From positions 1 through 58,351 of the IMG/VR virus record IMGVR_UViG_3300026196_000002: a DNA stretch of 58,351 nucleotides, one strand, 5' to 3'. The notes below the pieces were generated by a model. That model was not told the origin of the DNA and did not search any database. It saw only the letters and a list, made by a program, of their open reading frames with translations. Of this stretch, positions 1 to 58,351 are shown piece by piece. Made by a program: the position numbers and the translations under genes. How positions within the stretch are numbered: position 1 is the first letter of the stretch; each line of letters opens with the position of its first letter. The DNA comes from a virus (lineage: Duplodnaviria; Caudoviricetes).

Positions 1-127
1 AAAAGCCTGAAAACGTATTTATAAATCATTACGCCTTGCAGTATTATGGGGATGATATTGTTGTTGAGGACGTTCACAATTTGAGTATTACTGGCGGGAT
101 TGAACATTATGATGGCTCTGGCCCTGC
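1..127. repeat. Terminal 127-bp direct repeat (copy 1); circular-assembly overlap
   Basis: 1-127 is identical to 58225-58351, and one ORF reads in frame across the junction. Confidence 0.95.
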
Positions 128-1349
128 TGTTCGTATGGATGTAGGGGCAGATATTACCGGGAAAGTCGTTATTGACATAATCCCTCATAATACCCCGTCG
201 TTTTCTATTGCGGATGAACACATTCCTGTTATTGATTTTAGGAGTGGTTTTTTAGAGGGTTATTACAATTCCTCTGATCCTAGTTATGACGCAACATTTG
301 AGACAGGTTTGGATGGATGGATACAGTCATACGCCTTCACACCTCCAACTGACAACCTCAGGGTGACAACACAAGCACACACAGGGACTTATTCGTTTGC
401 CGTTACAGGGTCTGACAATGGTGCAAGTTGTGAAAACACTTATTTTTACGAGACTTACACAAATCTGCCTAATACAACCTACCTCCTGAGTTTTTGGGCG
501 AAGGCTAATCAAAGTGATGTGGCTTTTGTTTGGCAAGAAGATGGGGCTGGAACACCAACAGAAATATTGAATATTTCAGAAGTCAGCACCTCATGGACAA
601 AATACACGGCAGAATTTACAGGTTCAGCAATTTCAAGTAATCTAATTAGAGCCTATATAAATTATTGTACTACAGAGACAGCTGTTGTGTATGTCGATGA
701 TCTTACAATAACTCCATCATTAGAGGGGGGAGAAGTCCTCGTTTATAATTCCACCAATAAAAGATATGAGGATGCTGCGGAGGGGGGTCCCCTTATCCAA
801 CAAGACGACTCATCTGTAGCCGTCACAGACACAGGGACGGATGGAAAGATTGAGTTCACAGTTGATGGAGAAACTAGCCTCACTTTAAATGATACATTTA
901 ATAGTTATACAGCCCCTAATGCGTCATTTAAAACTAATGGAGTATCCAACTCGCTTAACATGGTGACACACAACGCCGCATCCACAGGTACAAATTATTT
1001 TAGATTTATCAAAGCGAGAGGCACTGAAGCAAGCCCATCTGCGACACAGTCTGGTGATGTCATGGGGTTATTCTATTTCGGTGGCTATAACGGAACAGAT
1101 TATGATGTGCGAACTTTTATGCAGGGCGTCGCAACGGAGAATTGGGATGCAACCACTGGAGAAGGTTTTAGAGTTGATATAAAAACAAAAGCGAATGGTC
1201 AAACTGGCGGATCTGCTGTCGCGATGACATTTCAGGATGACGGTGAGATTGAAATACCTGATTTGGCTGGCACATACACGGGTGGTTCAGCATATGTGTG
1301 TGTCGATAATGCAGGTGTTTTATTTGTGTCTGAATCCGCCTGCCCATAA
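1..1349 (+). CDS. Tailspike C-terminal part (carbohydrate-binding-like domain plus fiber-type C-terminus)
   Basis: CBM4/9-like segment (TFETGLDGW...YLLSFWAK...VYVDDLTI); C-terminal KARGTEASPSATQSGD motif typical of phage fibers. Confidence 0.7.
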   Translation, partial: KPENVFINHYALQYYGDDIVVEDVHNLSITGGIEHYDGSGPAVRMDVGADITGKVVIDIIPHNTPSFSIADEHIPVIDFRSGFLEGYYNSSDPSYDATFETGLDGWIQSYAFTPPTDNLRVTTQAHTGTYSFAVTGSDNGASCENTYFYETYTNLPNTTYLLSFWAKANQSDVAFVWQEDGAGTPTEILNISEVSTSWTKYTAEFTGSAISSNLIRAYINYCTTETAVVYVDDLTITPSLEGGEVLVYNSTNKRYEDAAEGGPLIQQDDSSVAVTDTGTDGKIEFTVDGETSLTLNDTFNSYTAPNASFKTNGVSNSLNMVTHNAASTGTNYFRFIKARGTEASPSATQSGDVMGLFYFGGYNGTDYDVRTFMQGVATENWDATTGEGFRVDIKTKANGQTGGSAVAMTFQDDGEIEIPDLAGTYTGGSAYVCVDNAGVLFVSESACP

Positions 1350-1358
1350 GGAGCAACA

Positions 1359-1583
1359 ATGAAACAATTGCTATTACTAATCCTCCTGCTCCCCTCCCTC
1401 GCGCTGGCCGGGTATGTGACCATCGGGGTTGCTGTACCACATGATCTAACAATGGCCATTACCGACACAACAGCCATCAGCGCTGATATCAATGGGGGTA
1501 CTGGTCGAGCAATTACCGACTACACCACCGAGAGCGGCAGCTATGACGGCAACGCCAAATTCCAGATGCGGGATATTCAGTAA
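1359..1583 (+). CDS. Small protein with predicted signal peptide
   Basis: RBS AGGAG; N-terminus MKQLLLLILLLPSLALA. Confidence 0.7.
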   Translation: MKQLLLLILLLPSLALAGYVTIGVAVPHDLTMAITDTTAISADINGGTGRAITDYTTESGSYDGNAKFQMRDIQ

Positions 1584-1666
1584 TTGCTACTTTGAGGCGT
1601 CCCGCCTACGGTCAAAGTTGGGGCTAATAGGGTATTAATAACCCAAGCATTTGAAAGCAGAGCATA

Positions 1667-3751
1667 GTGGCCGTAAAAATCCACCCTTCAGTAAAGCCAG
1701 ACACACCGCTGGCGAAAATCCCTAGTCATGCTAAGTACCGTATGGCTCAACATGGGGCTGATATTGTCATTGGTGGTGATCACCCAACACTGGTGCTGCC
1801 GGAAGTCCGCGCCGATAAGTGGGGAGGTACGTGCTGGCTGACGGTTCGCCATGCCGACGCCGACCAGATGCATCCGCAGGATCGGCATACCGAGCGACTG
1901 GCTAATGGTAAGGTGGAGCTCGATCTGCCGGTCAGTGCCAAAGGCCGGACGCACCGGATAAAGCAGGGGTCGCTCAAGTGGGATATTGAGTATGCATCTG
2001 CGGAGTCGCTGCCTGCTGACGGGATCGAGCGGTTCAGCCTTGAGTCACCTGCTGGGCTGACATGGCATCACCAGTCTGCCTTGACACAGGCAGAAATCGA
2101 CGCGGGGCTCTCTCGTCCTGAGAACGTCATCAACTCTTACGCAGCCTACTGGAACCAATCAAACAATCAGTACGGCACCGGCAAATTCGCCCATCTTTAC
2201 CGCCCGGAAATGGTCGATGCTAGTGGTAACCGCGCTTGGGCCACCCAAGAGATTGTCGGTGATGAGCTGCGAGTAGTCCTCCCCCTCGGGTGGCTTGAGA
2301 CGGCGACCTACCCCGTCACCCTCGACCCAACTTTTGGGTTTGAATCGGTTGGTGCGTCTACTCGAAATGCATTAAATAATTATCTCATGGGGATTGGACC
2401 GTTCACGCCAACAGCTTCCGGGACTGTTACCTCCATATCCATCTATATGACGGTGGCGACTGACGGGACATCGGTAACGATGGGCCTGTACGACGATACT
2501 GCTGCTGACCCGGCAAATCGTCTCGGCAGCAGTTCCGGTGGTTCGGTCCCCAATGCGTGGGGATGGCGGGAACAGTCGGTGAGTGCGGAAGTCACGGGAG
2601 GAGCGGATTATTGGGTAGCTCAAAACCACGATACCGGCTACGCCTATCTCAAGTTTGACAGTGTTGCCGATTTCCATGGTGTTTATACTTCTGACACCTA
2701 TTCCGCAGGGTCGCTGCCAGACCCATTCGGCGCGATTGGCGGGTCTTGGTCTAATACTAAACATTCAGCATACGCCACCTATGCCGAGGGGACAAGTAGT
2801 TTTGGGTTTGTTGATAGTGGCGGGTTCAGCTTTGAAAATGATGGCGGCTTCGATTGGGGGGATACTGACGGCACCCTGACTTCTCCAGCGATTTCGGCAC
2901 AGCCGGTTGTCTCTTCACCAACTTTGCTTGGCGTCAGGGTTGGGATCATGACCGCCCCACCCGTCAGCGCCCGGCCTGCAGTTTCGGCAGTGGTTGCGAC
3001 GGGGGTTCAAAACGGCGAACTGACCGCCCCACAAATTAGTGCCCAACCAGTCGTCAGCCCCTCAACCCTGACGACGACGGCAGCGGCGGTGATGACTTCT
3101 CCGCAGGTTAGCGTTCAGCCTGTCGTCTCCTCCTCGGTTTGCACGGGCACCCAAAACGGGGCCATGACCGCCCCGGCAGTCAGTGCGCAGCCAACGGTTA
3201 CCGCCTCATTCCTTGTTGGCGGAGCTGTCGGCGTGATGACCTCTCCACAAACAACAATTCAGCCGAGCGTTGTTTCTTCCCTGTTATCGGCTGGGTCTTT
3301 CGGCTTGATGGATCCTCCGGCGGTTACAGCCCAACCGGCTATCTCTGTGTCAACTCTGTTCGGCGTCCGTAACGGGTCAATGTCCTCGCCGCCCGTTTCT
3401 GTCCAGCCTGAAATTGTTGCGACAGTCGCCTATGGTCTGCGCAGCGGGGATATGACTTCGCCAGCCGTGACGGTTCAGCCTGTTGTTCTGGCGGCGTCTC
3501 TGGCGGTCGGCATTCTCGATGGGGCAATGGCCTCCCCGGCGGTCAGTACCAGGCCGAAGCTTGCCGTTTCCTTGTTGTCTGGAGTGAGGATCGGGGCACT
3601 GGCAAGCCCAGCCCTGACTGTTCCGCTCTCTGTTACGGCGTCAAGATTATTGGTCGGGTCGGCAGAGGGCAACCCAAGGGAGGTTATTTATTTCCAGGGG
3701 CGGATAAAATCAATTACGCTTGATGGGCGGGTTAAAAACATACAAATTTAA
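1667..3751 (+). CDS. Putative virion structural protein with repetitive C-terminal half
   Basis: 694 aa; repeats of the form G-x-MTSPxVSxQPxV; lies in the tail gene region. Confidence 0.65.
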   Translation: MAVKIHPSVKPDTPLAKIPSHAKYRMAQHGADIVIGGDHPTLVLPEVRADKWGGTCWLTVRHADADQMHPQDRHTERLANGKVELDLPVSAKGRTHRIKQGSLKWDIEYASAESLPADGIERFSLESPAGLTWHHQSALTQAEIDAGLSRPENVINSYAAYWNQSNNQYGTGKFAHLYRPEMVDASGNRAWATQEIVGDELRVVLPLGWLETATYPVTLDPTFGFESVGASTRNALNNYLMGIGPFTPTASGTVTSISIYMTVATDGTSVTMGLYDDTAADPANRLGSSSGGSVPNAWGWREQSVSAEVTGGADYWVAQNHDTGYAYLKFDSVADFHGVYTSDTYSAGSLPDPFGAIGGSWSNTKHSAYATYAEGTSSFGFVDSGGFSFENDGGFDWGDTDGTLTSPAISAQPVVSSPTLLGVRVGIMTAPPVSARPAVSAVVATGVQNGELTAPQISAQPVVSPSTLTTTAAAVMTSPQVSVQPVVSSSVCTGTQNGAMTAPAVSAQPTVTASFLVGGAVGVMTSPQTTIQPSVVSSLLSAGSFGLMDPPAVTAQPAISVSTLFGVRNGSMSSPPVSVQPEIVATVAYGLRSGDMTSPAVTVQPVVLAASLAVGILDGAMASPAVSTRPKLAVSLLSGVRIGALASPALTVPLSVTASRLLVGSAEGNPREVIYFQGRIKSITLDGRVKNIQI

Positions 3752-4531: not shown

Positions 4532-5206
4532 TTACAAAAACATCATGCGCCGATGAACATTTCTGAGTGCTGCTACGTCTGCCCGGTTGTAATCTACTAT
4601 TTTCTTAATATTCCCTTTCTGGAATTCCGGCCAAACATCGGCTCCGGTCATGTCAGTCTTCGGGGATTCAACGCCAAGAGCCTTACAAACGGCATCAAGC
4701 GAGACGTAATTCCCCCATCCGGCCCACGCGGTCTTGGTGTCATAGACATGCTCTCCATTATATCTTGTGTCCTGGCGGAGATCGAATGACGGCTTACAGG
4801 ACAAGACAACCGAACGCTGGAATAAAAACCTCAGGTCAAACAAGTCCTTACTGCCATGAATCACCCGCTGCAGCATCCCGATGCCCTCAGAGATGAGAGA
4901 ATCGTTGACCGCTAAATAGAAACCATCAAGCAAGTCCAACTCGCTTTCGCCCTGTGACCTGAAACGAGTTCTGACCTCGGAAGTATTCAGCGCCCAGGAA
5001 ATGCAAACAACCTCTCCCTTCGACCCGTCAAAGGACGTTTTCAGCCATTTTTCTTCTGCCGCCTGCTCAGCATTTTCTTTCATCCATGCTGCAATGGATT
5101 CAGGTTTTTTGATGTTCCCAGGCGGAGAAATTGAGGCATAGATATCCTCTTTTACCTGCTGAGATTGGGAGGGAATTGTTTCAATGTCGAGATAAAGATA
5201 GTTCAT
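4532..5206 (-). CDS. DEDD-family 3'-5' exonuclease (PolB proofreading-like)
   Basis: YLDIETIP (ExoI), FDLRFL (ExoII), YNRADV (ExoIII). Confidence 0.85.
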   Translation of the reverse strand: MNYLYLDIETIPSQSQQVKEDIYASISPPGNIKKPESIAAWMKENAEQAAEEKWLKTSFDGSKGEVVCISWALNTSEVRTRFRSQGESELDLLDGFYLAVNDSLISEGIGMLQRVIHGSKDLFDLRFLFQRSVVLSCKPSFDLRQDTRYNGEHVYDTKTAWAGWGNYVSLDAVCKALGVESPKTDMTGADVWPEFQKGNIKKIVDYNRADVAALRNVHRRMMFL

Positions 5207-5877
5207 GGTTTATCCTTAAATGGGAGGTCGTCTTTTGAGCTGTCATAAGAAGGCCCTTCGTTTTCAAGCTTATCGACCATCTTTTTCAGTTCTTTGGCGA
5301 CAACCCCCGCCTGCTTGTCTGAATACCCACGGTAGTCGGGTTTTCCAAGGATAGTTTTACCGTCCTTTTCCCACGTTGTCAGGTCGATCAAGGTTGCCTT
5401 TTTTTCTTCGATGCTGTCGCCGAAAAGGGTATCAAGGGCATGCACAATGTCGTTGTTAATTTTTTGCCGTGCATCTGAGGGCGCAGGGTTGTTTTGCTGA
5501 TCAGTGGCTCTCTGCTGGGGCGGCTGGTTCTGCTGATGTATTGCATTTGCTACTTCGTCGGCCGTGGCAAACTCTGTCCCACCAAGGCCGAAGGAAGCAA
5601 GAGCGCGGCCAATCGCAGAAGTTTCAGCATTCTCCAGAGCGCTGGTGCGGTTAATCTGGCTGCGGCTGCGCTGTTCTTCAGCGTGACCGGTAGCGATAAC
5701 CCTGCCCTGTTCATCGCTAATTCTGGCGATCATGACCACTTCGTCCTGATCGCGAAAAAGAATTTCCGTCGTCAAAGAAATCATCGGGTGAGATTCACGA
5801 AATTTTCCGACCCGATAAGCAACGGTCTGATATTGTTTTCCGTGGATTTCAACGATTCCTGTATCTTTATTCATCAC
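5203..5877 (-). CDS. Putative Rad52/Sak-like single-strand annealing protein
   Basis: IHGKQYQTVAYRV...ATGHAEE...SALENAETSAIGRAL motif; coupled to the exonuclease gene. Confidence 0.65.
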   Translation of the reverse strand: MMNKDTGIVEIHGKQYQTVAYRVGKFRESHPMISLTTEILFRDQDEVVMIARISDEQGRVIATGHAEEQRSRSQINRTSALENAETSAIGRALASFGLGGTEFATADEVANAIHQQNQPPQQRATDQQNNPAPSDARQKINNDIVHALDTLFGDSIEEKKATLIDLTTWEKDGKTILGKPDYRGYSDKQAGVVAKELKKMVDKLENEGPSYDSSKDDLPFKDKP

Positions 5878-6678: not shown

Positions 6679-6879
6679 ATGTTAGCAATTTATGAGTTAA
6701 AAAACCTGGTTAATGTTAGAGCCAGGAATGGGTTAACCCAGGCGGAGCTCGCTGAGCAGGCGGGCTGCGGAGTCCACACGATCCACAGGATTGAAAATAG
6801 GGGGGACCCGGTGAAAATGTCCACGGCCCGCAAGATCGCCAGGGCGATGAATGTTGACCTGGCTGAGTTGGTTGGCTGA
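6679..6879 (+). CDS. XRE/Cro-like HTH regulator
   Basis: RARNGLTQAELAEQAG...TIHRIEN; RBS GGAGG. Confidence 0.85.
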   Translation: MLAIYELKNLVNVRARNGLTQAELAEQAGCGVHTIHRIENRGDPVKMSTARKIARAMNVDLAELVG

Positions 6880-6958
6880 GCAACGTCTCCATAGGTGGCA
6901 TGTCCGCTTGATAAAGCGCTGTCCGTTAGCGGTCACCCTTGCTATTAAGAGGGAAAAC

Positions 6959-7300
6959 ATGAGTTTTGAATATTACGGGCCTAGCATGGCCATAGAGGAA
7001 GAAATCAGGCCTTTTGATCTTCACTGTCCACTGATGGGCGGAGGGCTAAACTTTTACAAGGAAAAATGCTTGGCAAGGCAAAGGAACCCACAGGATTCAA
7101 CATGCTATGGTGGGTGTCGAGGAATCAGGGTTAATAGCATGGCAAAAAAGAATAAACTAAATGGGGCGAAAAAAACCGGAAACAGGGCCGCAGCTATGCT
7201 CATGCTGAAGCACAATGTCCCAGTTTCAGAAATCGCCAAAGCCCTGAATGTCAGCAAGGCAACCGTTTATAAATACAAAGGAGGGAGAAATGGCAAATAA
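6959..7300 (+). CDS. Cys-rich protein with C-terminal HTH
   Basis: VPVSEIAKALNVSKATVYKY. Confidence 0.65.
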   Translation: MSFEYYGPSMAIEEEIRPFDLHCPLMGGGLNFYKEKCLARQRNPQDSTCYGGCRGIRVNSMAKKNKLNGAKKTGNRAAAMLMLKHNVPVSEIAKALNVSKATVYKYKGGRNGK

Positions 7301-7781: not shown

Positions 7782-8192
7782 ATGAAAAAACACCGTATCA
7801 TCATAAGAAGCGATTGGCATAGGGAAAGGGCAGCATCTTTGGCGCGGTCCGCTCCCGAAGGATTTGAGGTCGTCATTCAGAAACATAGGGAGAATAAAAC
7901 TATCCCCCAACTGGGCTACACCTTCGGGATCATTTACCCGACCATTATCGGATTTATCGAAGATAGCCATGGAGATACATTCTCTGTTGAGGAGATCCAC
8001 AAATACATGAAAAGGCAGATTCTTGGAGTGGAACACAAAGAAATTGACGGCGACATTATCGAGGTCGAGATAGAACTGAAGAAGTCAGATAAGGATGCCT
8101 GGTCGGGGTATATCGACCGTCTTGTCGCATATTGCTGGAACCGGTGGGGGTTGCAAATCCCTGCGCCGCACTGGAAAGAGGACCCCGCATGA
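7782..8192 (+). CDS. NinB-like protein
   Basis: Size, position and loose pattern match to NinB/Orf. Confidence 0.5.
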   Translation: MKKHRIIIRSDWHRERAASLARSAPEGFEVVIQKHRENKTIPQLGYTFGIIYPTIIGFIEDSHGDTFSVEEIHKYMKRQILGVEHKEIDGDIIEVEIELKKSDKDAWSGYIDRLVAYCWNRWGLQIPAPHWKEDPA

Positions 8193-8497
8193 TATTCCCA
8201 AAGCCGAAACGCTGGAAGAGCAAAAAATACCGGGATGCCGCCAGGGATCAGAATTGCAAGCTCCGCCTGCCAGGGTGCATGAACAATACCGAAACGGTTG
8301 TCCTCGCCCATCGCGGCGGCGCAGGAATGGCGATAAAGGCCTGCGACCACAACGCGGTTGACGCCTGTTTCCATTGTCATTCAATCCTTGACAGGCCGGA
8401 TTACTGGCCATGGCCAAAGAAGGAAATGGAGAGTCGGTTCAATCGCGGGCGCCTGGAAACCCTCATTGACCGGATCGAGCGGGGGATTTTAAAATGA
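8189..8497 (+). CDS. DUF1364-like Zn-binding putative nuclease
   Basis: ARDQNCKLRLPGC...ETVVLAH...ACFHCH. Confidence 0.75.
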   Translation: MIFPKPKRWKSKKYRDAARDQNCKLRLPGCMNNTETVVLAHRGGAGMAIKACDHNAVDACFHCHSILDRPDYWPWPKKEMESRFNRGRLETLIDRIERGILK

Positions 8498-8934
8498 GTT
8501 ATGAAATTTGCCCGGTGGGGAAGATTTACAACAGGACCCATGCCACATGCCGGACCTGCACAATTAAATGCACTGGGAAGGGCGCGGCACAGCCACACCG
8601 GGCAAAAAAAAGCAAATACGGCAATCGCAAGGTCGTCGTTGACGACGTTCTGTTTGATTCTAAGCGCGAAGCGTCGCGCTATCAAAAATTAAAGTTGATG
8701 GGGCTGGCTGGGGAGATCTCTGGATTGCGGTTGCAGGTAAGGTTCGAACTTGCCCCGGCTGTTGTTATTAACGGAAGAAAGAAGCCGGCACTTCGTTATT
8801 ATGCAGATTTTGTTTATCTCGACAAATCCGGTGGTGTGGTTGTCGAGGATGCAAAAGGGCATCGTGATGGGATCTATAAAATTAAGCGGCACCTTATGAA
8901 GTCGGTCCACGGTATTGATATTCTGGAAACCTGA
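8494..8934 (+). CDS. DUF1064-family PD-(D/E)xK endonuclease
   Basis: SKYGNRKVVVD...FDSKREA...YYADFVY...VVEDAKG. Confidence 0.85.
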   Translation: MSYEICPVGKIYNRTHATCRTCTIKCTGKGAAQPHRAKKSKYGNRKVVVDDVLFDSKREASRYQKLKLMGLAGEISGLRLQVRFELAPAVVINGRKKPALRYYADFVYLDKSGGVVVEDAKGHRDGIYKIKRHLMKSVHGIDILET

Positions 8935-8984
8935 CCAGTGTGTTCAGTCTGCTGATGTCCGTGGTTATACGCAAGGAGTTTCGT

Positions 8985-9188
8985 ATGAAAATAGAACAAG
9001 AAAACCCACTTTATAAACCGATAACTATCACGCTTGAAGAATGGCATGAAGCAAAAGCATTGTTCGGAATTATTGATAAGGCTGAGGTGTGGAGATGCAA
9101 CGCAGAAAACCCAAAATTTACCCACGACGAAATTAAAATGTTAATAGACTTATCAGACGCACTGACCAACCAAGTTGTAAGCGTATAA
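8985..9188 (+). CDS. Cassette ORF, hypothetical
   Basis: RBS AAGGAG; stop codon within the GTATAAC core. Confidence 0.75.
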   Translation: MKIEQENPLYKPITITLEEWHEAKALFGIIDKAEVWRCNAENPKFTHDEIKMLIDLSDALTNQVVSV

Positions 9189-9318
9189 CTGACTTAGATC
9201 AGCTGCGGCGACGTGAAGTTAAGTTTATTACCGCATTAATCGGATAAAACAGACGTATGTTCCGTCCGCTTGATGCACTGGTTAGGTTCTTATCACAACT
9301 TTTTGAAAGGGAGTAATC

Positions 9319-9525
9319 ATGGCAGCAGAAGCTATTTATATTGTTTGGTGCCCGACCGGAGATACCCCACCAATTATCCGCCACCAGTCAGTTGACGAAG
9401 CACGAAGGGCGGCAAGGGATATGTGCCAAAATCACCCACACAAGGAATTTTTTGTGATGAGGGCTGTTGAGTCTGTGCAATACAGAACAGACCCTTTTGT
9501 TTGCAAGAGCTACTGTAAGCGTTAA
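9319..9525 (+). CDS. Cassette ORF, hypothetical phage protein
   Basis: RBS GGGAG; bounded by GTTAGGTTCTT and AAGAACCTAAC. Confidence 0.75.
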   Translation: MAAEAIYIVWCPTGDTPPIIRHQSVDEARRAARDMCQNHPHKEFFVMRAVESVQYRTDPFVCKSYCKR

Positions 9526-9642
9526 GAACCTAACATTACAAATAACTGGTGGCGACGAGCCGACCGAGCATTTAGCGAACAGGGTGTTCCATCCACGTTG
9601 ATTTGCTGGTTAGTTTGCGCTGCTGAGAAGAGGAGAACGACG

Positions 9643-9804
9643 ATGGCAAAAGGTGAAATGGATAAACAGCCCTGCAAAACCTGCGGAAAAGAAACGAACC
9701 AAGTCTTTAATATTGGATTCAAGGCTGTGCCCATTTGTAATTCGTGTGCGAACACGATAGCTATGCAGCAGTTGGGATGGTTGATTGAACACCAAGCAAC
9801 CTAA
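9643..9804 (+). CDS. Cassette ORF, Zn-finger (two CxxC)
   Basis: CKTC...CNSC; RBS AGGAG. Confidence 0.7.
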   Translation: MAKGEMDKQPCKTCGKETNQVFNIGFKAVPICNSCANTIAMQQLGWLIEHQAT

Positions 9805-9839
9805 CGTTACTGATAACCAGGGGCGACGAGGAGGACGTA

Positions 9840-10127
9840 ATGACTGACGAAATGGACTGTAACAGTTGCGTAGTGACTGATTTGGAAGATCAAGAGTGCG
9901 ACGTGTGCCATGCAGAGCAAGTGCGTGAACCCGCACAGGAACACCCCTCTGCGTTAATTGGCTTGTTAGCACGCGCTCTTTGCAAGGCGGACACCCTTGG
10001 ATATGAGCGCGGTTTCACTGACGCAGACCCTACGGCTGGAAACACCGATGATGCGTTAATGGAGGTGGTTGAAATGACATGGAAAGAATGGATAGAGGAC
10101 GCCGAGCAAGTTTTACGTGCGTGCTAA
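9840..10127 (+). CDS. Cassette ORF starting inside the attC loop
   Basis: RBS GAGGAGG inside site 9799-9971; two CxxC. Confidence 0.7.
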   Translation: MTDEMDCNSCVVTDLEDQECDVCHAEQVREPAQEHPSALIGLLARALCKADTLGYERGFTDADPTAGNTDDALMEVVEMTWKEWIEDAEQVLRAC

Positions 10128-10237
10128 CGTTGGAATAAGCGCGTGGCGGGTAATAGCTGGCGACAGGGTTTGATCCTGTGAACCACACCACTATTTCCAT
10201 CCGCTTCATGTACATGGTTAGCCAAGGAGTAGACATT

Positions 10238-10495: not shown

Positions 10496-10526
10496 CTATT
10501 GAGATAACCGGATTGTGGAGGAAGAG

Positions 10527-48204: not shown

Positions 48205-48206
48205 GG

Positions 48207-48389: not shown

Positions 48390-48495
48390 CTGTATTCCCC
48401 TTTCGTAGGTAAGCCGTACAACCAGCAAATCAAGCGGATGAAAATACTGGTGTGGTTTCTATTCAGCGGTCATCCGTCACCGCTTATCATGGGCG

Positions 48496-48645
48496 TTATG
48501 TAGCTTTAAAAATTTCAGCTAATTTTTCTTCTAACCACTTTACTTCCCTATATGACCCTTCTCCGGTCAACTCAATAGTCCAGGCTGTTGACTCTGTATT
48601 CGTGTTTGTTATGGGCTTCTGTTTTATAATGGTCGTTGCTTTCAT
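48496..48645 (-). CDS. Cassette ORF, 49 aa
   Basis: Manual translation MKATTIIKQKP...LAEIFKAT; RBS GAGG; stop codon in the core site. Confidence 0.65.
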   Translation of the reverse strand: MKATTIIKQKPITNTNTESTAWTIELTGEGSYREVKWLEEKLAEIFKAT

Positions 48646-48778
48646 ATCCACCTCTGCCGCATAACCAGTAAATCAACCGGACGGGAATTAGCTTCTGTTC
48701 TTAGGCTGTTCAACTCGGTGGTCCTCCATCGTCGGCAATCCGCCGGTTATCGCCATCCGTTAGCCAGCCTTCGGCAAA

Positions 48779-49069
48779 TTAAATACCCTCGCCAATAAAA
48801 TGCTCTGATATTTTGTCTGCGGTTTCGGGGTCAAATAGTTTTTCGGTGATAAACCAAATCACTTCCTCAACACCTTCGCGCATTCCTACTTTACGAAACT
48901 CGTCAAGTTGCACATCGCAACGTGCGTGAAACTCTTGCTGCCACTTTTCAACCTCTGCGATCAACCACTCAAGCGTGTCTTGGTCATCAACTCCCCAATG
49001 TGGCGTTGTTGCTAATTGCTCAGTGTGTTTTGCGAGCTTCTTCGCTTTTTCCAACAGTTCCATTTTCAA
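48779..49069 (-). CDS. Cassette ORF, hypothetical
   Basis: Fills the cassette; WLIAEVE motif. Confidence 0.7.
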   Translation of the reverse strand: MKMELLEKAKKLAKHTEQLATTPHWGVDDQDTLEWLIAEVEKWQQEFHARCDVQLDEFRKVGMREGVEEVIWFITEKLFDPETADKISEHFIGEGI

Positions 49070-49164
49070 TGCCTCTCAGAATAAGGCTAACAATTAGTTC
49101 AAGCGGATGGAACAAAGCGTCTGTCTCTTAGTCACCGCCCATCCGCCACCGCTTAACATTGGCG

Positions 49165-49416
49165 TTAAATTGCTTGCATATCTTTCAGCGCCAACGCCAT
49201 TGCTTTCGCCGGGCCGGTGTACTTTGTAATGCACTTTCGGCAAGGAACAACCTGTATCCCTGGCACCTTTTCCATACATCCACCAGTGGGCAATGGCGGG
49301 TTATCCATATCAGTTGTCGTAAATTGGCACTTAACCGTCTGCTCCGACTGTCTTTTTATGCCTAGCAGGGCACCGCATTCTGAGCAGAAAAATTGAAGAA
49401 TAAGGTTATTTCTCAT
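49165..49416 (-). CDS. Cassette ORF, Zn-finger
   Basis: CSECG...PCRKC; RBS AGGAG. Confidence 0.7.
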   Translation of the reverse strand: MRNNLILQFFCSECGALLGIKRQSEQTVKCQFTTTDMDNPPLPTGGCMEKVPGIQVVPCRKCITKYTGPAKAMALALKDMQAI

Positions 49417-49512
49417 AATGTTGCTCCTTTCAAGAGCGCAATTTAACCAACTAATCAACCGGACGGAAGAACCGTCTGCGCTAAATGCCCGATCCAGGGC
49501 ACCGCCGCTCGT

Positions 49513-49728
49513 TTACTTTTGCTCATTGCCTAGCCTCCTCATTCTGAATTGAACCCTAAAATTATCACCCGCGATTGTTGCTATTGCTGTACCGTCGTCG
49601 TGTTCTTTCAGCAACTCTATTACTCTAAAATCTACTTCATGTATCAACCCACAATCGCAACATTTCATTTCGTATTTATTCATTTGTGGCTTTACCCACT
49701 CATTACTTCTTACCTTGTAAAACCCCAT
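49513..49728 (-). CDS. Cassette ORF, CCDCGL-H family small protein
   Basis: EWVKP...KCCDCGLIHEVDF. Confidence 0.75.
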   Translation of the reverse strand: MGFYKVRSNEWVKPQMNKYEMKCCDCGLIHEVDFRVIELLKEHDDGTAIATIAGDNFRVQFRMRRLGNEQK

Positions 49729-49883
49729 AAACAACCCCTTATGTCTGCTTCGCAGCCACGCCGTTTTAAAATCTAACCAGTGCATCAAGCGGACGGAACA
49801 TACATCTGTTTTAGGCCGATTAATGCGGTAATAGTTTGTTGCTTCACGTCGCCGCAGCTTATGCGGGTCGTTAGCTGTTTAAT

Positions 49884-50081
49884 TTAAATCATTGATTCAA
49901 CGGTAAAATAAATGTCTGACTCTTTTTTATCCGGGTTAACCCTAATGTCCCACTCAAAATGCTCCATGAGTTTTTCCGCCGTTTCGCGGGAAATTCGCAG
50001 TAATAGTGTCTTGTCATCATCCTTTTGATTGTAAGGGTGGCGAGAAAGTATTCTTAACGCGTAGTCAACTTTATCTCCCAT
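49884..50081 (-). CDS. Cassette ORF, hypothetical
   Basis: 65-aa ORF with a weak RBS. Confidence 0.5.
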   Translation of the reverse strand: MGDKVDYALRILSRHPYNQKDDDKTLLLRISRETAEKLMEHFEWDIRVNPDKKESDIYFTVESMI

Positions 50082-50107
50082 ATTTATAACCTTTATGGAG
50101 GCACCAA

Positions 50108-50392
50108 ATGGACGAAATCAAAAAGCCAAACTTTGGAGAGTGTAACTTTGCTGAAAACACAGTTATCGCTGGCGGTGCTTTTAAAGAAAGGCCAGAAATA
50201 AAGCCCCTGAAAATAGCCACTCTCATTCTTGGTAATGTCCATATTGATGTGAAAATCAAAACAATTTCCGACCAAATTCTTACTGGTAAAGTTGTCAGCG
50301 TTGAACCCAAAAAAGAACTTCCACCTGAATTAGCCATAAATGACACGGTAGAATTCTCCTTTGACAATATTTGCAATATAAAAGACAGCTAA
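50108..50392 (+). CDS. Cassette ORF in canonical integron orientation
   Basis: RBS GGAGG; stop codon in AGCTAAC (R''). Confidence 0.7.
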   Translation: MDEIKKPNFGECNFAENTVIAGGAFKERPEIKPLKIATLILGNVHIDVKIKTISDQILTGKVVSVEPKKELPPELAINDTVEFSFDNICNIKDS

Positions 50393-50518
50393 CCATGAAA
50401 TCAACCGGACGGAAAATACGTCTGCCTAAATTTGATTAGCTCGGTGGTCCTCGTTGCGTAGCGCCGCCGCCGGTTATCACTACCGTTGTATTGCTTAATG
50501 TAAAGTCGGAGGCACATT

Positions 50519-50824
50519 ATGCCTATCGAACATGTTTGGGGTCTCGTTCTCGTTCTTGCTGGCGTTGCAATCCTCGCCGTCCTTGACGATATTCGGAGTA
50601 GAAGTTCGCTCAAGGAAGTTAATAATAAACTCTCTGCTCTCCGGGAGAAGATTGAAATTTGCGATAGCGAGCACAATAAAACCATCTCTAACCTCAAGAA
50701 AATACATTTTCAAGAAATTACCAAACTTAAAGAATCGATCTCTGAACTTACGGAAGAAAATAAAGAGCTTAAGCTTATGCCATGGCAAGCCGAGAAAAAC
50801 GAGCCTACGTACTACGGGGAATAA
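50519..50824 (+). CDS. Cassette ORF in canonical orientation; transmembrane segment plus coiled coil
   Basis: RBS GGAGG; bounded by GTTGTATTGC and GCAATACAAC. Confidence 0.7.
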   Translation: MPIEHVWGLVLVLAGVAILAVLDDIRSRSSLKEVNNKLSALREKIEICDSEHNKTISNLKKIHFQEITKLKESISELTEENKELKLMPWQAEKNEPTYYGE

Positions 50825-50897
50825 GCCGCAATACAACCATGCAATCAACCCGTCAATGTTTTTGTGCGTAGCGCCGCCGCCGGTTATCTTCACCGTT

Positions 50898-51035
50898 CTA
50901 TTCGTACTCGTCGGCGCTAATTCCTTCAACAGTTATCGCCCCGACTTGAAACTTAGCGACAACATCAATAGCCTCGTCTCCGCTACAGCCTGCTAGTACC
51001 TCTAAAAACTCTCGCAATGACAGATCTTCACTCAT
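50898..51035 (-). CDS. Cassette ORF, 45 aa
   Basis: Manual translation MSEDLSLREFLEVL...ISADEYE; RBS GAGGAG. Confidence 0.6.
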   Translation of the reverse strand: MSEDLSLREFLEVLAGCSGDEAIDVVAKFQVGAITVEGISADEYE

Positions 51036-51083
51036 CTATAAGTCTCCTCACACTTTAACCAGTAAATCAAGTGACGTTATGCG

Positions 51084-51290
51084 CTAAATACAGCTCTTGT
51101 GGTATTCGTCTTTTTTTTCTTCAATTTCGCCAATCGTGTGCTCAGTAATCTTGCATTCGTACTTGCCACCGCGCCATGTCTTTTCCACGTCAGCTGCATA
51201 GGCAGCAGAACCATAATTAAGATACGCGCCGACCACATAACTGTGACTTTCTTGGTCGCCCCACCTATAAGCAGTCACGACAAGAATCAT
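51084..51290 (-). CDS. Hypothetical phage protein
   Basis: VVTAYRWG...HSYVVG...RGGKY; ATGA-coupled to the DnaC-like gene. Confidence 0.75.
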   Translation of the reverse strand: MILVVTAYRWGDQESHSYVVGAYLNYGSAAYAADVEKTWRGGKYECKITEHTIGEIEEKKDEYHKSCI

Positions 51291-52183
51291 TTCATGCCCC
51301 CCCGCCGCCGATATGACTCCCAATTAAAAACCAACACCCTAGAATTTCCCTCGTAAAATCGATCTATTGCTCGCTCACTCAAATATACCTCAAGAGCCTC
51401 TGCTGGGAGATTGCTGATAATGATCGTTGGCCTCTGGGCCTCATAGCGCTCGTTGATCACCTCCGTCAGAAACATCTTTTCGGTTGCCGACCCGAACTGC
51501 ACTCCCACCTCATCGATCACCAGCAGATCTGGCAAGGCGAACTCATCGATAGCCGTCTGCTCATCCTCTTTGTTGTTCCAGGTCGCTTTCACTCGTCTGA
51601 CAATTTTGATCGCCGTCGAATGAATAGCGGTATAACCATTATTCATCACCTCATTACAAATTGCCGCAGACAACATATTTTTTCCTGTGCCATAGTTGCC
51701 GACCATACAAATGCTGTCACCAGCCGCCAGGCGATCCTCAAATGTCGCTGCATATCTCTCACAGAAGTGCAAAACCTTCTCTGCCTCCGGAGTTGGAGGT
51801 TTGTAATCATCGAATTTCACAGCAGCGAACCGACGGCCAATCCGACACCGCTCAAACCGAGCTTGGGTCTTCTCTTGCTCGCGTCTTTCTTTGTTTAAAA
51901 TTTCTTCCTTGGCAACCTTAGCCATAAGTTCTTCCGCCAGAGCATCGGCCTCTTCTTTGACGCACTTCGGGCAAAATTCTTCGCCGGTGTGCTCGGCAAT
52001 GATTAGTTCAACCCGGTGTTTCTCGCAGCTCTGCTGCGAAGCCCGGGGGATCGTTGATCCCATTCCGCATAGTGCCTGACCAATCGTCGCTGGTTCGCTT
52101 CCTGTTTGCTGAACCCTTTGCTTTCGCTCCTTGCGCTTTTTCTCCAGCCTCTCCTGGGCCGCCTGCCAGTCCCGCACCTCCAT
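51287..52183 (-). CDS. DnaC/IstB-like AAA+ helicase loader
   Basis: GNYGTGKN (Walker A), LLVIDEVG (Walker B), INERYE..PTIIISNL; start placed at the ATG with a GGAGG RBS. Confidence 0.9.
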   Translation of the reverse strand: MEVRDWQAAQERLEKKRKERKQRVQQTGSEPATIGQALCGMGSTIPRASQQSCEKHRVELIIAEHTGEEFCPKCVKEEADALAEELMAKVAKEEILNKERREQEKTQARFERCRIGRRFAAVKFDDYKPPTPEAEKVLHFCERYAATFEDRLAAGDSICMVGNYGTGKNMLSAAICNEVMNNGYTAIHSTAIKIVRRVKATWNNKEDEQTAIDEFALPDLLVIDEVGVQFGSATEKMFLTEVINERYEAQRPTIIISNLPAEALEVYLSERAIDRFYEGNSRVLVFNWESYRRRGGMK

Positions 52184-52832
52184 CACTCGGTCCTCCCTCT
52201 GGGTTCCTTCCTGGTTTCGGTTCACCATCCCTCCGCCAAAAATTGCGGATAGTCGCCGCATAGTCCTTATATTTCTTGCCCTTAGATGCGCAGTAATCGT
52301 TAACCTTGTCAATATAGCTTGAAAGCTGGTCTTCCCCCAACATCTCTTTTAACGATTTATGTTGTTTTTCGCACAGCCTGACATGGCTACCATATTTTTG
52401 TTTATTATCTGGTTTATTATCTGGTATATTATCTGGTTTATTATCTGGTTTATTATCTGGTATAGGTTCGGGGATTTTCTCACCTCGACTTGTGAATTTT
52501 CCCAACTCGATATTGGAAATTTCACAAATCCACTTTGACTCTTCAGCAAATGCGTACCATGCGGTCCTGTCGTACTTGTTGTTGTTATACTCTCCTTTAA
52601 CCAAAACACCTGAGTCAACAAGCGTTTGCAGGCAATATCTGATTTGGCTTTCCGTCCAAAAAGGGAAAATCTCCGTGAACGCCTGAACACTATTATAAGT
52701 CCATGTCCTTCCGTCATAATTATGACTACCATTCGCTCTGTTTTTTATTATCCAAAATTGGAAATTGGCGATAATAATCGCCTGGTTTACCCCATATCTA
52801 ACTGCCGTTCCAACATCGAATTGATAATTCAT
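52008..52832 (-). CDS. Phage replication initiator protein
   Basis: YGVNQAII...FWI.KN...DGRTWTYNS N-terminus; KYKDYAATIRNFW C-terminal domain; internal tandem repeats. Confidence 0.85.
   Translation of the reverse strand: MNYQFDVGTAVRYGVNQAIIIANFQFWIIKNRANGSHNYDGRTWTYNSVQAFTEIFPFWTESQIRYCLQTLVDSGVLVKGEYNNNKYDRTAWYAFAEESKWICEISNIELGKFTSRGEKIPEPIPDNKPDNKPDNIPDNKPDNKQKYGSHVRLCEKQHKSLKEMLGEDQLSSYIDKVNDYCASKGKKYKDYAATIRNFWRRDGEPKPGRNPEGGPSDGGAGLAGGPGEAGEKAQGAKAKGSANRKRTSDDWSGTMRNGINDPPGFAAELRETPG
52401..52460. repeat. Five 12-bp tandem repeats (TTTATTATCTGG); candidate origin iterons
   Basis: Five adjacent copies, one with a single substitution, inside the initiator gene as in lambda O. Confidence 0.75.
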
Positions 52833-55858: not shown

Positions 55859-56278
55859 ATGGCCGACATTACTGCAAGTACAGCTTTACGAGATTTTATT
55901 GCCGGACGGCTTTCAACTGCCGGAGGTAGCTACATGTGGGCAACACTGCATTCCGACACCGCCAACATTACCGCTGCATCAACCTATGCTGCCAGTGGGA
56001 TTGACGAGTTAACAACCGCAAACGGATACACTGCTGGAGGCCAAGCATTGACGCCTATCGTCAATACCAACGGTGTTCTTGACGTGCCAAACGCGCAATG
56101 GACGACCGGCGCAGGCGAAACCCTGACCGCCGCCTGTGGGTGCCTTTGGATTAATTCGAGCGATACCATTACTGGGGCTGCGCTGGTTTGTTTGGAAGAT
56201 AATTCTCAGGTGGCTAGTAACGGCGGGACAATGACCCTGAGTAATACCAATAACATCACAATCCCAACCCCGGCTTAA
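55859..56278 (+). CDS. Virion/tail structural protein
   Basis: ELTTANGYTAGGQAL motif. Confidence 0.7.
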   Translation: MADITASTALRDFIAGRLSTAGGSYMWATLHSDTANITAASTYAASGIDELTTANGYTAGGQALTPIVNTNGVLDVPNAQWTTGAGETLTAACGCLWINSSDTITGAALVCLEDNSQVASNGGTMTLSNTNNITIPTPA

Positions 56279-56284
56279 CGTAAA

Positions 56285-56314
56285 AACCGCCCGTCGTGAG
56301 ACAGCCGATCCCTA
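56285..56314 (+). repeat. Intergenic hairpin repeat copy 2
   Basis: AACCGCCCGTCGTGAGACAGCCGATCCCTA. Confidence 0.7.
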
Positions 56315-56348
56315 AAGCCCCCTTCGGGGGGCAAGATGGAGTTGAAAA

Positions 56349-58351
56349 ATGAGGAAACTGTTTATTGGTCTAACCCTGACGTTGTTGCTGGTTGCCCCGG
56401 CATTCGCCGACAACAAAGTTATCTGGAGAGATGGGCTGACAGGCGGAGGCACCTCACTCGACGGGAAGGCGGCTGCGGACTTGTCAACCGGTGACGTTGC
56501 GGCGGTATTCTCCGGGTCAAAGGTCTATTTATATACCTATGATGCGACGGACGAGACTTCTGAAAGCTCCCCGGATACGATCAAGCCGGATGATGCCGGA
56601 GCCGGGGGTGTGTGGTTTCTACAAGGGTCCGGGATTGCTCCTGCGGCCCATGCCTCGACTCATGCCATTGGCGGGAGCGATGCAATTACGATTACAGCGG
56701 CGGGAACTTCCGTTGAGGACGCGGGAGGGCTTTATGCTGCGACGGATGCAGAAGCGGCGTTTGCCGAAGCTATGACGGCGATTAATAACCTTAACAGTGA
56801 AGTCACCGTCTCCGACGCCAAGCTTGACTTTGGGGCCAAAGGAGACGGGGTTATTCATCCTGGTTTCAATATGTATCCCCAAAGTTGCTCTATCGACACA
56901 GCTACATCAACAACGACATTAACCTGTCTTGACCAGTTTTTTGGAGTCAGACAAATTGGCAAAATTATTATCATCCCCGGTGCCGGGACAGCCGGGGCAA
57001 CACTTGAAACAACTATTACAGCTGTTCCTAATGATTATTCTGTAACATTGGCTGATGCGGCTTCAACGGATGTGACGGACATAGACACGGTTAGGATGGG
57101 GCATGGTACAGGCTGCCATATGACAGCTGGTAGCCCTATTATAACGTGTACTGAAGCTGTGTTTACTGACACGGCTACAGATGGTGGCAAAGATATCGCC
57201 ATTGAAGGAGTTGGCGCTGCTGGTGCAAACCTTGTAACCACAATATCAAGCGTGTCATCAACAACCGTTGCGACTCTTGCTAACAACGCAAGTACTACGA
57301 GTCGTTACAGGTGGATGAAGTTTGGCACAGACGATACGACGGCAATTCAAAATGCAGTTGCTTGGGCGGCAGACAACCAGGGAAAGATTTATTTCTCCGA
57401 AGGTGTCTATATGTATGATGATGAGGCAGTCATTGATGATACTGGATTAATTGAGGGTGCTGGTGCATATGACACTCTTTTTGCCCCATTGCCGGGGTAT
57501 GCTGGTGGATGGTTTTTAACTCTTAACGATACGTGGGGGCAAGCTACTCCCAACCCCCTTGGGGGCGCTGACGGTGGTATGGGGGTTACGTCCGAGGGTA
57601 TCTCTCCGCTTGAATACAAGCAAGGGGTAATTTTAAACGGTTTTAGTGTTGTAGGAACACGGCAGCTTGACCCATTAGGGACGCATGGAATTAGGACGTA
57701 TAACCGTGTTGACCGGACAATATGGCTTGACGTTTCTACGTGGTATCTCAATGGAACGGGGGTAAGTCTTGGCCTTCAAGGCGGGACTGCTTACGGGGCT
57801 GCAGGGCAAATGGGTGAAGTCCGAGAGTCGCAGTTTTTCAGGCTTATTCTTCGTGGTTGTGGGGTAGCGAACACCTATAAATCTTTTGAGGTTGGAACAC
57901 AAGAGGGCGATGTTGCTACAGCAGATTGGAATGAACAATCAAATATTCTTACATTCTATACCCTGCAATCTATTTACAATTACGGGGAATCGGGGATTTA
58001 CGACAACACCACAAGAGACTTTGCAAGCACGAGAGAAATAACTTTTTACGACTTAAAGCTTCACGGCTTTGCTAATTATGGCTTTTGGCAAAGAAACGCT
58101 ATTGATGATGATTTGTTTGTTATTGAGGGGGATATAAACGGGGTTCGATTCACAGACGCCGACATTAATGGTGGTCACGCTGGGGGAGCGATGTTAAGAA
58201 TCAAGAAAAGCGATACCACAGGCAAAAAGCCTGAAAACGTATTTATAAATCATTACGCCTTGCAGTATTATGGGGATGATATTGTTGTTGAGGACGTTCA
58301 CAATTTGAGTATTACTGGCGGGATTGAACATTATGATGGCTCTGGCCCTGC
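56349..58351 (+). CDS. Tailspike/depolymerase-like protein, N-terminal part; continues across the junction to 1349 (about 1074 aa total)
   Basis: Manual translation is open from ATG 56349 (MRKLFIGLTLTLLLVAPAFA...) to the end of the window. It has pectate-lyase-3-like motifs DFGAKGDG...GTDDTTAIQNA...IYFSEGVY and is in frame with ORF 36..1349. Absent from the ORF track. Confidence 0.8.
   Translation, partial: MRKLFIGLTLTLLLVAPAFADNKVIWRDGLTGGGTSLDGKAAADLSTGDVAAVFSGSKVYLYTYDATDETSESSPDTIKPDDAGAGGVWFLQGSGIAPAAHASTHAIGGSDAITITAAGTSVEDAGGLYAATDAEAAFAEAMTAINNLNSEVTVSDAKLDFGAKGDGVIHPGFNMYPQSCSIDTATSTTTLTCLDQFFGVRQIGKIIIIPGAGTAGATLETTITAVPNDYSVTLADAASTDVTDIDTVRMGHGTGCHMTAGSPIITCTEAVFTDTATDGGKDIAIEGVGAAGANLVTTISSVSSTTVATLANNASTTSRYRWMKFGTDDTTAIQNAVAWAADNQGKIYFSEGVYMYDDEAVIDDTGLIEGAGAYDTLFAPLPGYAGGWFLTLNDTWGQATPNPLGGADGGMGVTSEGISPLEYKQGVILNGFSVVGTRQLDPLGTHGIRTYNRVDRTIWLDVSTWYLNGTGVSLGLQGGTAYGAAGQMGEVRESQFFRLILRGCGVANTYKSFEVGTQEGDVATADWNEQSNILTFYTLQSIYNYGESGIYDNTTRDFASTREITFYDLKLHGFANYGFWQRNAIDDDLFVIEGDINGVRFTDADINGGHAGGAMLRIKKSDTTGKKPENVFINHYALQYYGDDIVVEDVHNLSITGGIEHYDGSGP
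58225..58351. repeat. Terminal 127-bp direct repeat (copy 2)
   Basis: Identical to 1-127. Confidence 0.95.

Follow-up and report, generated by a model that had tools for sequence, protein, structure and literature searches.

Two integrase-less arrays of attC-type cassettes in a complete soil phage genome

Cassette arrays and the structure of their sites

The virus record IMGVR_UViG_3300026196_000002 of IMG/VR (Duplodnaviria; Caudoviricetes), whose full stretch of 58,351 nucleotides (nt) was analyzed and is called the window here, contains two arrays of small genes separated by repeats of the attC type, the kind of site known from integron cassettes. Together, these arrays (Table 1) comprise 41 cassettes with 39 complete sites and make up 23.8% of the genome; their GC content (46.8% in array 1, 44.2% in array 2) is below that of the backbone (51.9%). 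The original prediction, which was made from the letters of the sequence, held that the contig closes into a circle, that it encodes no recombinase, and that its arrays may be recombined by an integron integrase (IntI) of the host. The first of these points is borne out: the record is a complete phage genome from soil, with an exact direct terminal repeat of 127 nt, the record class "direct terminal repeats", a CheckV completeness of 100 and a unique length of 58,224 bp, and an open reading frame (ORF) that begins at 56349 crosses the junction of the circle and runs free of stops to 1349 (1074 amino acids, aa).

The sites were described from an alignment of 31 sites of the window, read on the coding strand of the arrays. 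The triplets AAC and GTT at their two ends are each invariant (31/31) and mark the R box; the spacer after AAC measures 7 nt in 23 of the 31 sites, and the one before GTT 6 nt in 28. Further inwards, the L arms form a helix of 11 bp around a variable middle of 28–66 nt. In this helix 95.8% of the alignment cells are paired, eight pairs show compensatory changes, and 47 double-change cells are observed versus 10.3 ± 3.2 in shuffled alignments, a value that none of 500 shuffles reached; in controls with slid alignments, pairing amounts to 27–52%. The conserved helix includes no G-U pair at all, which fits a constraint on the pairing of DNA rather than of RNA. Minimum-free-energy folds of single sites did not recover the L-box pairing uniformly, whereas the alignment-based counts did. 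A scan of the window with Rfam gave no match, and Rfam itself holds no attC family.

The GTT-side arm carries a T without partner in 30/30 sites and, six pairs nearer to the R box, a partnerless G in 24 of 31 (C in five, T and A in one each); between these two, a third unpaired base occurs in 8 of the 31 sites. Counted from the 3' end of the 7-nt R box, the extrahelical positions are 16 and 23, or 16, 20 and 24. In agreement with this geometry is the description of the attC bottom strand in the available excerpts of PMC5027507, where the extrahelical bases – G16 and T23 or T24, with a required spacing of 6 bp – lie on the arm opposite AAC. In every structural feature that could be tested, the repeats correspond to substrates of IntI, and judged by these features they are integron-type attC sites; their recombination by the integrase itself is predicted. 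In many sites we also noticed a conserved inner block (ACCACCGAG..TTATC or ACCGCAATT) in mid-site, e.g. at 14020-14035, 14965-14980 and 16758-16773. It can pair near-perfectly with the AAC-side L arm, and this alternative, bulge-free hairpin is in competition with the attC fold.

Integron cassettes are joined by a crossover within the triplet of the R box; for this reason the first bases of a cassette pair with the inverse core found at the far end of that cassette, and not with the adjoining site. We set the 8 nt past each GTT against the 8 nt that precede the following AAC downstream. For the 33 cassettes of array 1, the mean complementarity is 6.6 of 8 (8 in four cassettes, 7 in 16, 6 in 11 and 4 in two), versus 2.9 of 8 both for pairs taken from the same site and for 1056 non-cognate pairs. 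For the eight cassettes of array 2 it is 5.5 versus 3.9 of 8, the first cassette being unmatched (2/8). This complementarity of ends, cassette by cassette, is the split-site signature of integron cassettes, and it shows that crossover in the R box joined the cassettes. The original prediction had taken the good complementarity of the cores as a sign of recent activity; this does not follow, because the complementarity attests to assembly at the R box and gives no date.

Both arrays are closed by an AAC-side terminal half-site composed of AAC, seven bases and AGGCG. At the opposite, upstream boundary of array 1, the extension next to GTT pairs with the AAC end of cassette 1 at six of eight positions. 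Turned to the canonical top strand, the terminal half-site would show the layout "L-like box, spacer, G|TT" of a simple attI, at the place where attI is to be expected. The arrays are integrase-less attC clusters (CALINs), as each contains at least two attC sites and the genome has neither an IntI nor any other tyrosine recombinase. They do not constitute a complete integron: intI is absent from the genome, and the attI-like character of the terminal half-site is one that we infer.

The cassette products are 45–106 aa long and nearly all are orphans; among 46 scanned cassette proteins there are one HTH_3 and a few weak matches to zinc ribbons or PHROGs. In 19 of the 33 cassettes of array 1, the stop codon is the TAA of a TAAC motif. 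Promoter-like sites (22 versus 19.3 ± 4.8 in shuffles) and terminator-like sites (16 versus 17.6 ± 3.6) are not enriched in the arrays, and there are just two strong promoters, each inside a cassette with two genes (Table 1). Two further observations concern the frame of the cassettes. The cassettes 13752-13980 and 16512-16718 have unrelated ORFs but a common 5' leader, which starts with the GTT extension and reaches the ribosome-binding site (RBS), along with a matching AAC-side extension; and one GTT extension recurs four times, at 9609, 12503, 17131 and 19725.

Table 1. Arrays, array ends, sites and backbone genes in the window (a dot marks a feature without strand).
Feature	Position	Strand	Remark or basis
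Array 1: 33 cassettes, 32 complete attC-type sites	8964-19943	+	36 small ORFs, all on +
Array 1, upstream boundary: GTT-side arm alone (L arm, spacer, GTTATACGC)	8940-8974	+	directly 3' of DUF1064 gene
Array 1, downstream terminal half-site: extension-AAC, 7 nt, AGGCG...	19933-19965	+	without partner arm
Representative site of array 1: extension-AAC, 7-nt spacer, L arm, variable middle, L arm with extrahelical T and G, 6-nt spacer, GTT-extension	16710-16820	+	best model score, 97.3 bits
Two-gene cassette: ORFs 11605-11925 and 11922-12101 (HTH_3)	11488-12102	+	own strong sigma-70-like promoter, 11535-11563 (11/12)
Second two-gene cassette	15980-16411	+	own promoter-like site, 16012-16039 (10/12, TG-extended)
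Array 2: 8 cassettes, 7 complete attC-type sites	48200-51078	-	8/10 ORFs on -
Array 2, downstream terminal half-site: AGCCGTACAAC, 7 nt, AGGCGGGC	48170-48212	-	8/8 complementarity with cassette start
Array 2, upstream boundary: collapsed site, AAC then immediately remnant L arm, spacer, GTT	51050-51086	-	2/8
Representative site of array 2	50383-50495	-	97.3 bits
Direct terminal repeat	1-127, copy at 58225-58351	.	100% identity
3'-5' exonuclease-like protein, part of general recombination module	4532-5206	-	family scans
Protein adjoining exonuclease; clusters dominated by PF27148 (Slr1353_N)	5203-5877	-	family scans
149-aa protein, resolvase-type HTH_7 motif alone (residues 107-143), without serine-recombinase catalytic domain	6851-7300	+	Pfam scan; PF00239 without match
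NinB/Orf-like mediator	7782-8192	+	family scans
YbcO nuclease	8190-8497	+	family scans
DUF1064 / Holliday-junction-resolvase PHROG	8494-8934	+	family scans
2801-aa polyvalent protein: RadC-like JAB, ADP-ribosyltransferase and LPD38 domains	37199-45604	+	Pfam/PHROGs scan
TnpB-like RNA-guided nuclease: OrfB_IS605 and Cas12f-like TNB domain	45714-46892	+	Pfam scan
250-aa protein (weak MptE-like lead), just past terminal site of array 2	46894-47646	-	family scans
151-aa protein, zinc ribbon and C-terminal helix-turn-helix by eye, just past terminal site of array 2	47643-48098	-	
DnaC-like loader	51287-52312	-	family scans
O-like replication initiator	52008-52832	-	family scans
Six 12-nt iterons inside O-like initiator gene, putative origin	52388-52483		repeat detection

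Polarity of the cassettes and related arrays

A covariance model, R1, was built from the 31 window sites only and in the orientation of the coding strand. At E≤1, it finds 38 sites in the window – 31 on the plus strand, in array 1, and seven on the minus strand, in array 2 – and none in the window outside the arrays or on the opposite strand. The attC of aadA1 on plasmid R100 scores 43.4 bits with R1 (E = 3e-11) when the strand antisense to the gene is read, versus 6.9 bits for the sense strand. On Tetrasphaera phage TJE1, whose published CALIN is described as "typical" in structure, R1 recovers all three attCs (3/3), which lie at the ends of orf1-3, and again each match is antisense to these ORFs. 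Because both controls are matched on the antisense strand, R1 models the canonical bottom strand. By this comparison, the bottom strand, which is predicted to be the recombinogenic one, is the coding strand in the phage, i.e. its cassettes are inverted with respect to ordinary integron cassettes and to both controls. The arrays to which the original prediction refers are real attC-type arrays; what it had overlooked is their inverted polarity.

The canonical cassette layout, with the ORF on the top strand of attC and attC downstream of the gene, is not found here. Six ORFs of array 1 (9840-10127, 10527-10778, 11092-11388, 13050-13322, 17676-17972 and 18706-18984) start within the variable middle of a site; their RBS lies in the site, and they traverse the GTT-side arm in one shared frame, in which this arm encodes S-(A/P)-(L/V)-(I/D)-x-x-(L/V). 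For excision to leave such ORFs whole, the attC must precede them in their own cassette, as cleavage at the AAC of the coding strand predicts. Most likely, then, the attC precedes the ORF in every cassette. In the N-terminal parts of four of these ORFs (9840, 10527, 11092 and 18706), CxxC motifs resembling zinc ribbons can be seen. Exceptions to the general polarity are the plus-strand ORFs 50519-50824 and 50108-50392 of array 2. One plus-strand ORF of this array pairs divergently with 50081-49884, and this divergent pair may represent a self-regulated or toxin-antitoxin-like module.

The arrays are not confined to a single phage. When R1 was applied to 44 viral loci anchored on DUF1064, sites at E≤0.01 were found in two of them, and altogether three other IMG/VR records (L012/G001, L015/G002 and L053/G003) carry arrays of the same inverted polarity. 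L012/G001 (40 kb, CheckV 99) possesses five sites with default filters and ten at E≤0.01 with the filters off; these sites are 64–132 nt long, the ORFs lie on the same strand as the sites, the complementarity of cassette ends is 5.75 versus 3.33 (nine of the ten sites used), and the array closes in the same AAC-side terminal half-site as those of the window. No match to PF00589 was found in this 99%-complete genome. Its cassette at 619-1119 (plus strand) encodes a 166-aa protein that by eye resembles a phage DNA N6-adenine methyltransferase, which echoes the methyltransferase cassettes reported in phage CALINs. In L015/G002 (CheckV 56), there are two sites. L053/G003 (48 kb, CheckV 82) possesses four, with a complementarity of 5.67 versus 3.5, and its array too closes in an AAC-side arm.

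The array of L053 includes a two-gene cassette with a promoter-like region (TTGACG-type hexamers by eye), whose first ORF is 64% identical to ORF 11605-11925 of array 1; homologs of the latter, 64–68% identical, are present in two other viral records. Since the L053 array is located upstream of the gene for SSB and not downstream of DUF1064, the related cassette occupies a different position in the backbone. At a distance of about 40 kb from its array, G003 also encodes a tyrosine recombinase. This protein scores 39.9 bits with TIGR02249, whose cut-off is 265, and resembles an ordinary phage or lysogeny integrase of generic Xer-like type. The only genes common to the phage of the window and the other array-bearing records are DUF1064 and the DnaC-like gene. 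Hence, no candidate enzyme travels with the arrays.

Other searches for relatives of the cassettes were negative: 8 kb of array 1 had no match among isolate phages with blastn, the cassette proteins had none in 47 collected loci (a search that preceded the finding of L053), and the cassette ORF 17676-17972 had no relative in viral contigs. Sequence words of array 1 occur in three soil metagenome runs from three studies (X1, X2 and X3), which were available as contigs only. The DNA of the window may itself derive from X1; X3 contains mostly short pieces. Many soil contigs match only the arms of a site and continue into unlike sequence (shares of 0.16, 0.37 and 0.57), which fits a wider soil pool of cassettes with this family of sites. 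One X2 contig, at differing depth, has the same cassette frame (leader and extension) around other content. Joints within contigs that could be taken for excision products (e.g. 9285 to 14303 and 13022 to 17391) have short sides of 20–48 nt; array 2 or other contigs with similar sites account for them, and they were not counted as excision.

Search for a recombinase and the phage backbone

Six-frame searches with hidden Markov models (HMMs) were run over the whole record with reporting at E≤10; as positive controls, each family was detected in 6 to 14 of 14 control genomes, depending on the family. There was no match to PF00589 (Phage_integrase), PF00239 (Resolvase), the integron-integrase model TIGR02249, PF01797 (Y1_Tnp, the Y1 transposase), PF01548 (IS110 DEDD) or PF07508 (the Recombinase domain of large serine recombinases), nor to PF00665 (rve), for which two first-look candidates were scored without either of them matching. 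As a second method, every stretch between stops in the circularized genome that reaches 40 aa or more (818 segments) was searched with phmmer (--max), with IntI1 of plasmid R100 and the tyrosine recombinase of G003 as queries. The top match among these segments has just E = 0.18 and 6.4 bits, whereas the two queries detect each other at E ~5e-12. Finally, 37 distinct backbone ORFs – including all of at least 150 aa – and the 46 cassette proteins were scanned with Pfam and/or PHROGs, and no recombinase domain was found among them. About 13 backbone ORFs below 125 aa were covered by the six-frame searches alone; they are too short for the catalytic domain of a tyrosine recombinase. The absence of a recombinase ORF that had been noted from the sequence is thus confirmed by these searches, among them the six-frame search with PF00589 and an IntI profile that the original prediction had itself put forward.

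Nearest to a recombinase come the HTH_7 motif of the 149-aa ORF, which has no catalytic domain, the TnpB-like nuclease and the proteins of general homologous recombination. The TnpB-like nuclease is not a cassette recombinase. Its gene has no TnpA partner and is situated between the gene of the polyvalent protein and a minus-strand gene, and its closest bacterial relative (60% identity) comes from a metagenome-assembled genome of a groundwater Latescibacterota. Single-strand transposition of the IS200/IS605 type was considered on account of this gene and rejected, as no match to Y1_Tnp exists. The NinB/Orf-like, YbcO and DUF1064 genes (7782-8934) have functions in homologous recombination, which are not site-specific. 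The protein at 5203-5877 could, by its position, be a single-strand annealing protein. For the proteins at 46894-47646 and 47643-48098, no homolog was found in the other array-bearing loci.

The remaining backbone is apparently that of a podovirus with early genes of lambdoid type. The structural genes encode the small and large subunits of terminase, portal, major head protein, an SU10-type adaptor, and further head and tail proteins; the endolysin is of the Amidase_3 type. The ORF across the circle junction, with pectin-lyase-like and CBM_4_9 domains, is probably a tail fibre, and the polyvalent protein is probably an injected multi-enzyme protein. A lambdoid-style early region combines an Xre-type helix-turn-helix protein and SSB (both identified by eye) with genes for recombination and replication. 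There are no tRNA genes in the genome. A 694-aa protein at 1667-3751 (plus strand) has no family match; around 2877-3492 its gene shows diverged repeats with a period of 72 nt (24 aa).

Possible source of a recombinase and possible meaning of the arrays

Taking these results together, we favor – with moderate confidence – a model in which integrase-less cassette arrays are recombined in trans by the integron integrase of the infected cell. The complete phage carries two CALINs whose cassettes are tiny ORFs, each flanked by the halves of a split attC. Single strands of the sites form imperfect hairpins, in which an R box of AAC and GTT, spacers left unpaired and an L box with extrahelical G16 and T23 or T24 give the exact geometry read by integron integrases; crossover would take place at the AAC of the coding strand. 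Because the phage has no site-specific recombinase, any shuffling of dynamic arrays calls for an enzyme from outside, which would excise, insert and reorder cassettes in trans and is most likely a host integron integrase. The bottom strand would be the non-template strand of heavily transcribed early operons, by which its folding may be favored. Provided that the iterons at 52.4 kb start replication in both directions, the lagging-strand template would also hold the bottom strand of both arrays. Promoters of intI are commonly under SOS control.

That phages carry integrase-less attC clusters and that IntI recombines such sites in trans is already published, and the idea is not new in kind. In the available parts of Qi et al. 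2023 (PMC9892861), 17 phage CALINs with at least two sites each are described, bacterial IntI is reported to recombine phage attCs, and IntI1 recombined five of six tested attCs of virulent phages. The use of a host IntI during infection, as proposed in the original prediction, is partly supported and remains putative: in its favor are the complete genome, the lack of a recombinase, sites that fit IntI substrates and their cross-recognition with bona fide attCs.

Several observations weigh against this model. No host can be named, as protein affinities conflict: the nearest relatives of the large terminase subunit are from a Pseudoalteromonas phage (50%) and Vibrio phages (48%), those of the major capsid protein from a Methanosarcina virus (36%) and Myxococcus phages (27–29%), and those of the DnaC-like protein from lambdoid coliphages (37%). 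In phage, viral-contig and metagenome collections, no close relative for a comparison of arrays and no rearranged variant was found; relatives of the small terminase subunit are limited to one locus at 34% among viral contigs and two at 34–36% among metagenome contigs. X2 contains the same phage at low depth, and its eight listed pieces of more than 300 nt are identical to the window. Comparisons of similar sites point to different R boxes as the place of exchange: the AAC-side extension is common to sites 13972 and 16710, while the GTT-side extension is common to sites 14300 and 49174 and also to one X3 contig. The inverted polarity makes simple exchange with ordinary bacterial integrons unproductive, as exchanged genes end up antisense – a phage cassette moved to an ordinary integron would be antisense to the promoter Pc, and phage transcription would read a bacterial cassette inserted here in antisense. 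Finally, several phage proteins are without an assigned function.

Among the alternatives, the one that survives best, although we consider it unlikely, is that the arrays are static now: built in an ancestor or in another context, they would survive as one block of early genes and be changed only by homologous recombination of the phage on the repeats. In line with this view are the exonuclease, NinB/Orf-like mediator, YbcO nuclease and resolvase-type protein of DUF1064 encoded by the phage, the 20–90 nt of similarity between sites, and the fact that no variant array was observed. Yet homologous exchange inside the sites should leave L arms that no longer match, while 95.8% of their pairing is intact and compensatory changes are numerous; the R-box extensions, too, remain matched cassette by cassette. 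A homologous cassette is found in the differently placed array of L053, and the conservation of the structure over 39 sites speaks for selection that still acts on the hairpin.

It is still less probable that the phage itself encodes a recombinase of a new family that we failed to recognize. The proteins without assigned function beside the arrays (46894-47646, 47643-48098, 19980-20243 and 5203-5877) would be the candidates, and the likeness of the terminal half-sites in three arrays hints at a dedicated platform. None of these array-side proteins, however, has a homolog in the other array-bearing loci; moreover, the geometry of the sites (G16, T23, spacing of 6 bp) is specific to IntI, and R1, though built on phage sites, finds classical attC sites.

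XerC and XerD integrate the folded single-stranded genome of CTX phage, and another tyrosine recombinase of the host such as XerC/XerD could in principle act on the folded single strands here. These enzymes are nearly universal, so that an integron-bearing host would be unnecessary, and G003 carries a generic Xer-like recombinase. We nevertheless regard this as a poor prospect, since the pattern of extrahelical bases is what integron integrases specifically read (PMC5027507, available excerpts), and the gene of G003 is some 40 kb from the array and has the appearance of an ordinary lysogeny integrase.

Capture of the arrays en bloc from a bacterial chromosomal integron is very improbable. The lower GC content of the arrays would be in its favor, as would the fragments of chromosomal integrons reported in Vibrio phages (PMC9892861, in the parts available). 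But inverted polarity is seen in array 1 for 36 of 36 ORFs and in array 2 for 8 of 10, which sets them apart from the ordinary cassettes of both controls; the two arrays lie on opposite strands, each following phage transcription; the same type of array recurs in three other viral records; and the products are phage-like orphans. Equally improbable in our judgment are regulatory cassettes (promoter plus stem-loop or terminator, of the T4 type) or RNA processing sites: the repeats do lie between co-oriented early genes and are transcribed within the mRNA, but promoters and terminators are not enriched, the two strong promoters being within cassettes, no Rfam match and no G-U pair in the conserved helix were found, and neither the long-range complementarity of cassette ends nor the match to the aadA1 attC is expected of regulatory hairpins.

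The arrays can also be compared with known systems. TJE1 is alike in that attC-type sites are found between co-oriented small genes of a phage without integron integrase, and R1 finds its sites. As far as TJE1 is described in the material available, it differs by its three sites, four ORFs and canonical polarity, versus 39 sites and 41 cassettes in two arrays here; also unlike TJE1, the phage of the window devotes almost a quarter of its genome to the arrays, has a coding bottom strand, and has conserved terminal half-sites. Sedentary chromosomal integrons such as the Vibrio superintegron are similar in their long arrays of small, mostly orphan cassettes, in the likeness of attC sites within an array, in occasional two-gene cassettes with their own promoters, and in a cassette GC content unlike that of the backbone. 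They differ from the present arrays, which are located in a virus, lack intI and have their ORFs on the bottom strand. In sedentary chromosomal integrons, the bottom strand is reported in the arrangement opposite to the lagging-template one inferred here. The attC of the class 1 cassette aadA1 has the same hairpin layout and a near-identical L-box core (TAAGC.G ... T-C.GCTT-G-A), but the opposite polarity to its gene; the phage sites are longer (28–66 nt between the arms), and many have the conserved inner block. Modular promoter–stem-loop cassettes of the T4 type move by homologous recombination, carry promoters and flank small accessory early genes in a hyperplastic region. They are comparable as repeated intergenic elements flanking small accessory early genes, while here promoters are not enriched and the ends bear the site-specific split-site signature.

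What is new here is the scale and the inverted polarity. Full-text searches of the literature found no report of phage arrays this large, of inverted polarity, of conserved terminal half-sites or of cassettes common to phage arrays; the supplementary CALIN list of PMC9892861, which lies outside this coverage, may hold larger or inverted cases. The cassette pool looks phage-specific, since exchange with bacterial integrons gives antisense genes. One may go further and, tentatively, envisage inverted integrons: a pool of small accessory-gene cassettes with attC upstream, and hence with a recombinogenic strand that is both coding and lagging-template strand, would circulate among unrelated soil phages and insert at a conserved attI-like half-site, and a host IntI, which SOS triggered by the phage could induce, would serve to gain, lose and reorder genes for host takeover or anti-defence within one infection, the cassettes being expressible in phages and silent in bacterial integrons. 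We consider this possible but doubtful.

Integrons are usually seen as a device of bacterial adaptation, and the few cases in phages have been interpreted as bacterial cassettes carried by the phage. In the present virus, 41 cassettes take up about a quarter of the genome while the enzyme is lacking, and their polarity makes them specific to phages. The prediction that the coding strand is the recombinogenic one can be tested directly with an existing assay. The arrays are moreover a catalog of about 46 small orphan phage proteins, which are candidates for host takeover or counter-defence. If the integrase of the host indeed drives the shuffling, integron integrases would be a resource that viruses exploit to diversify their early genes, and the SOS-integron response of bacteria would feed the evolution of phages.

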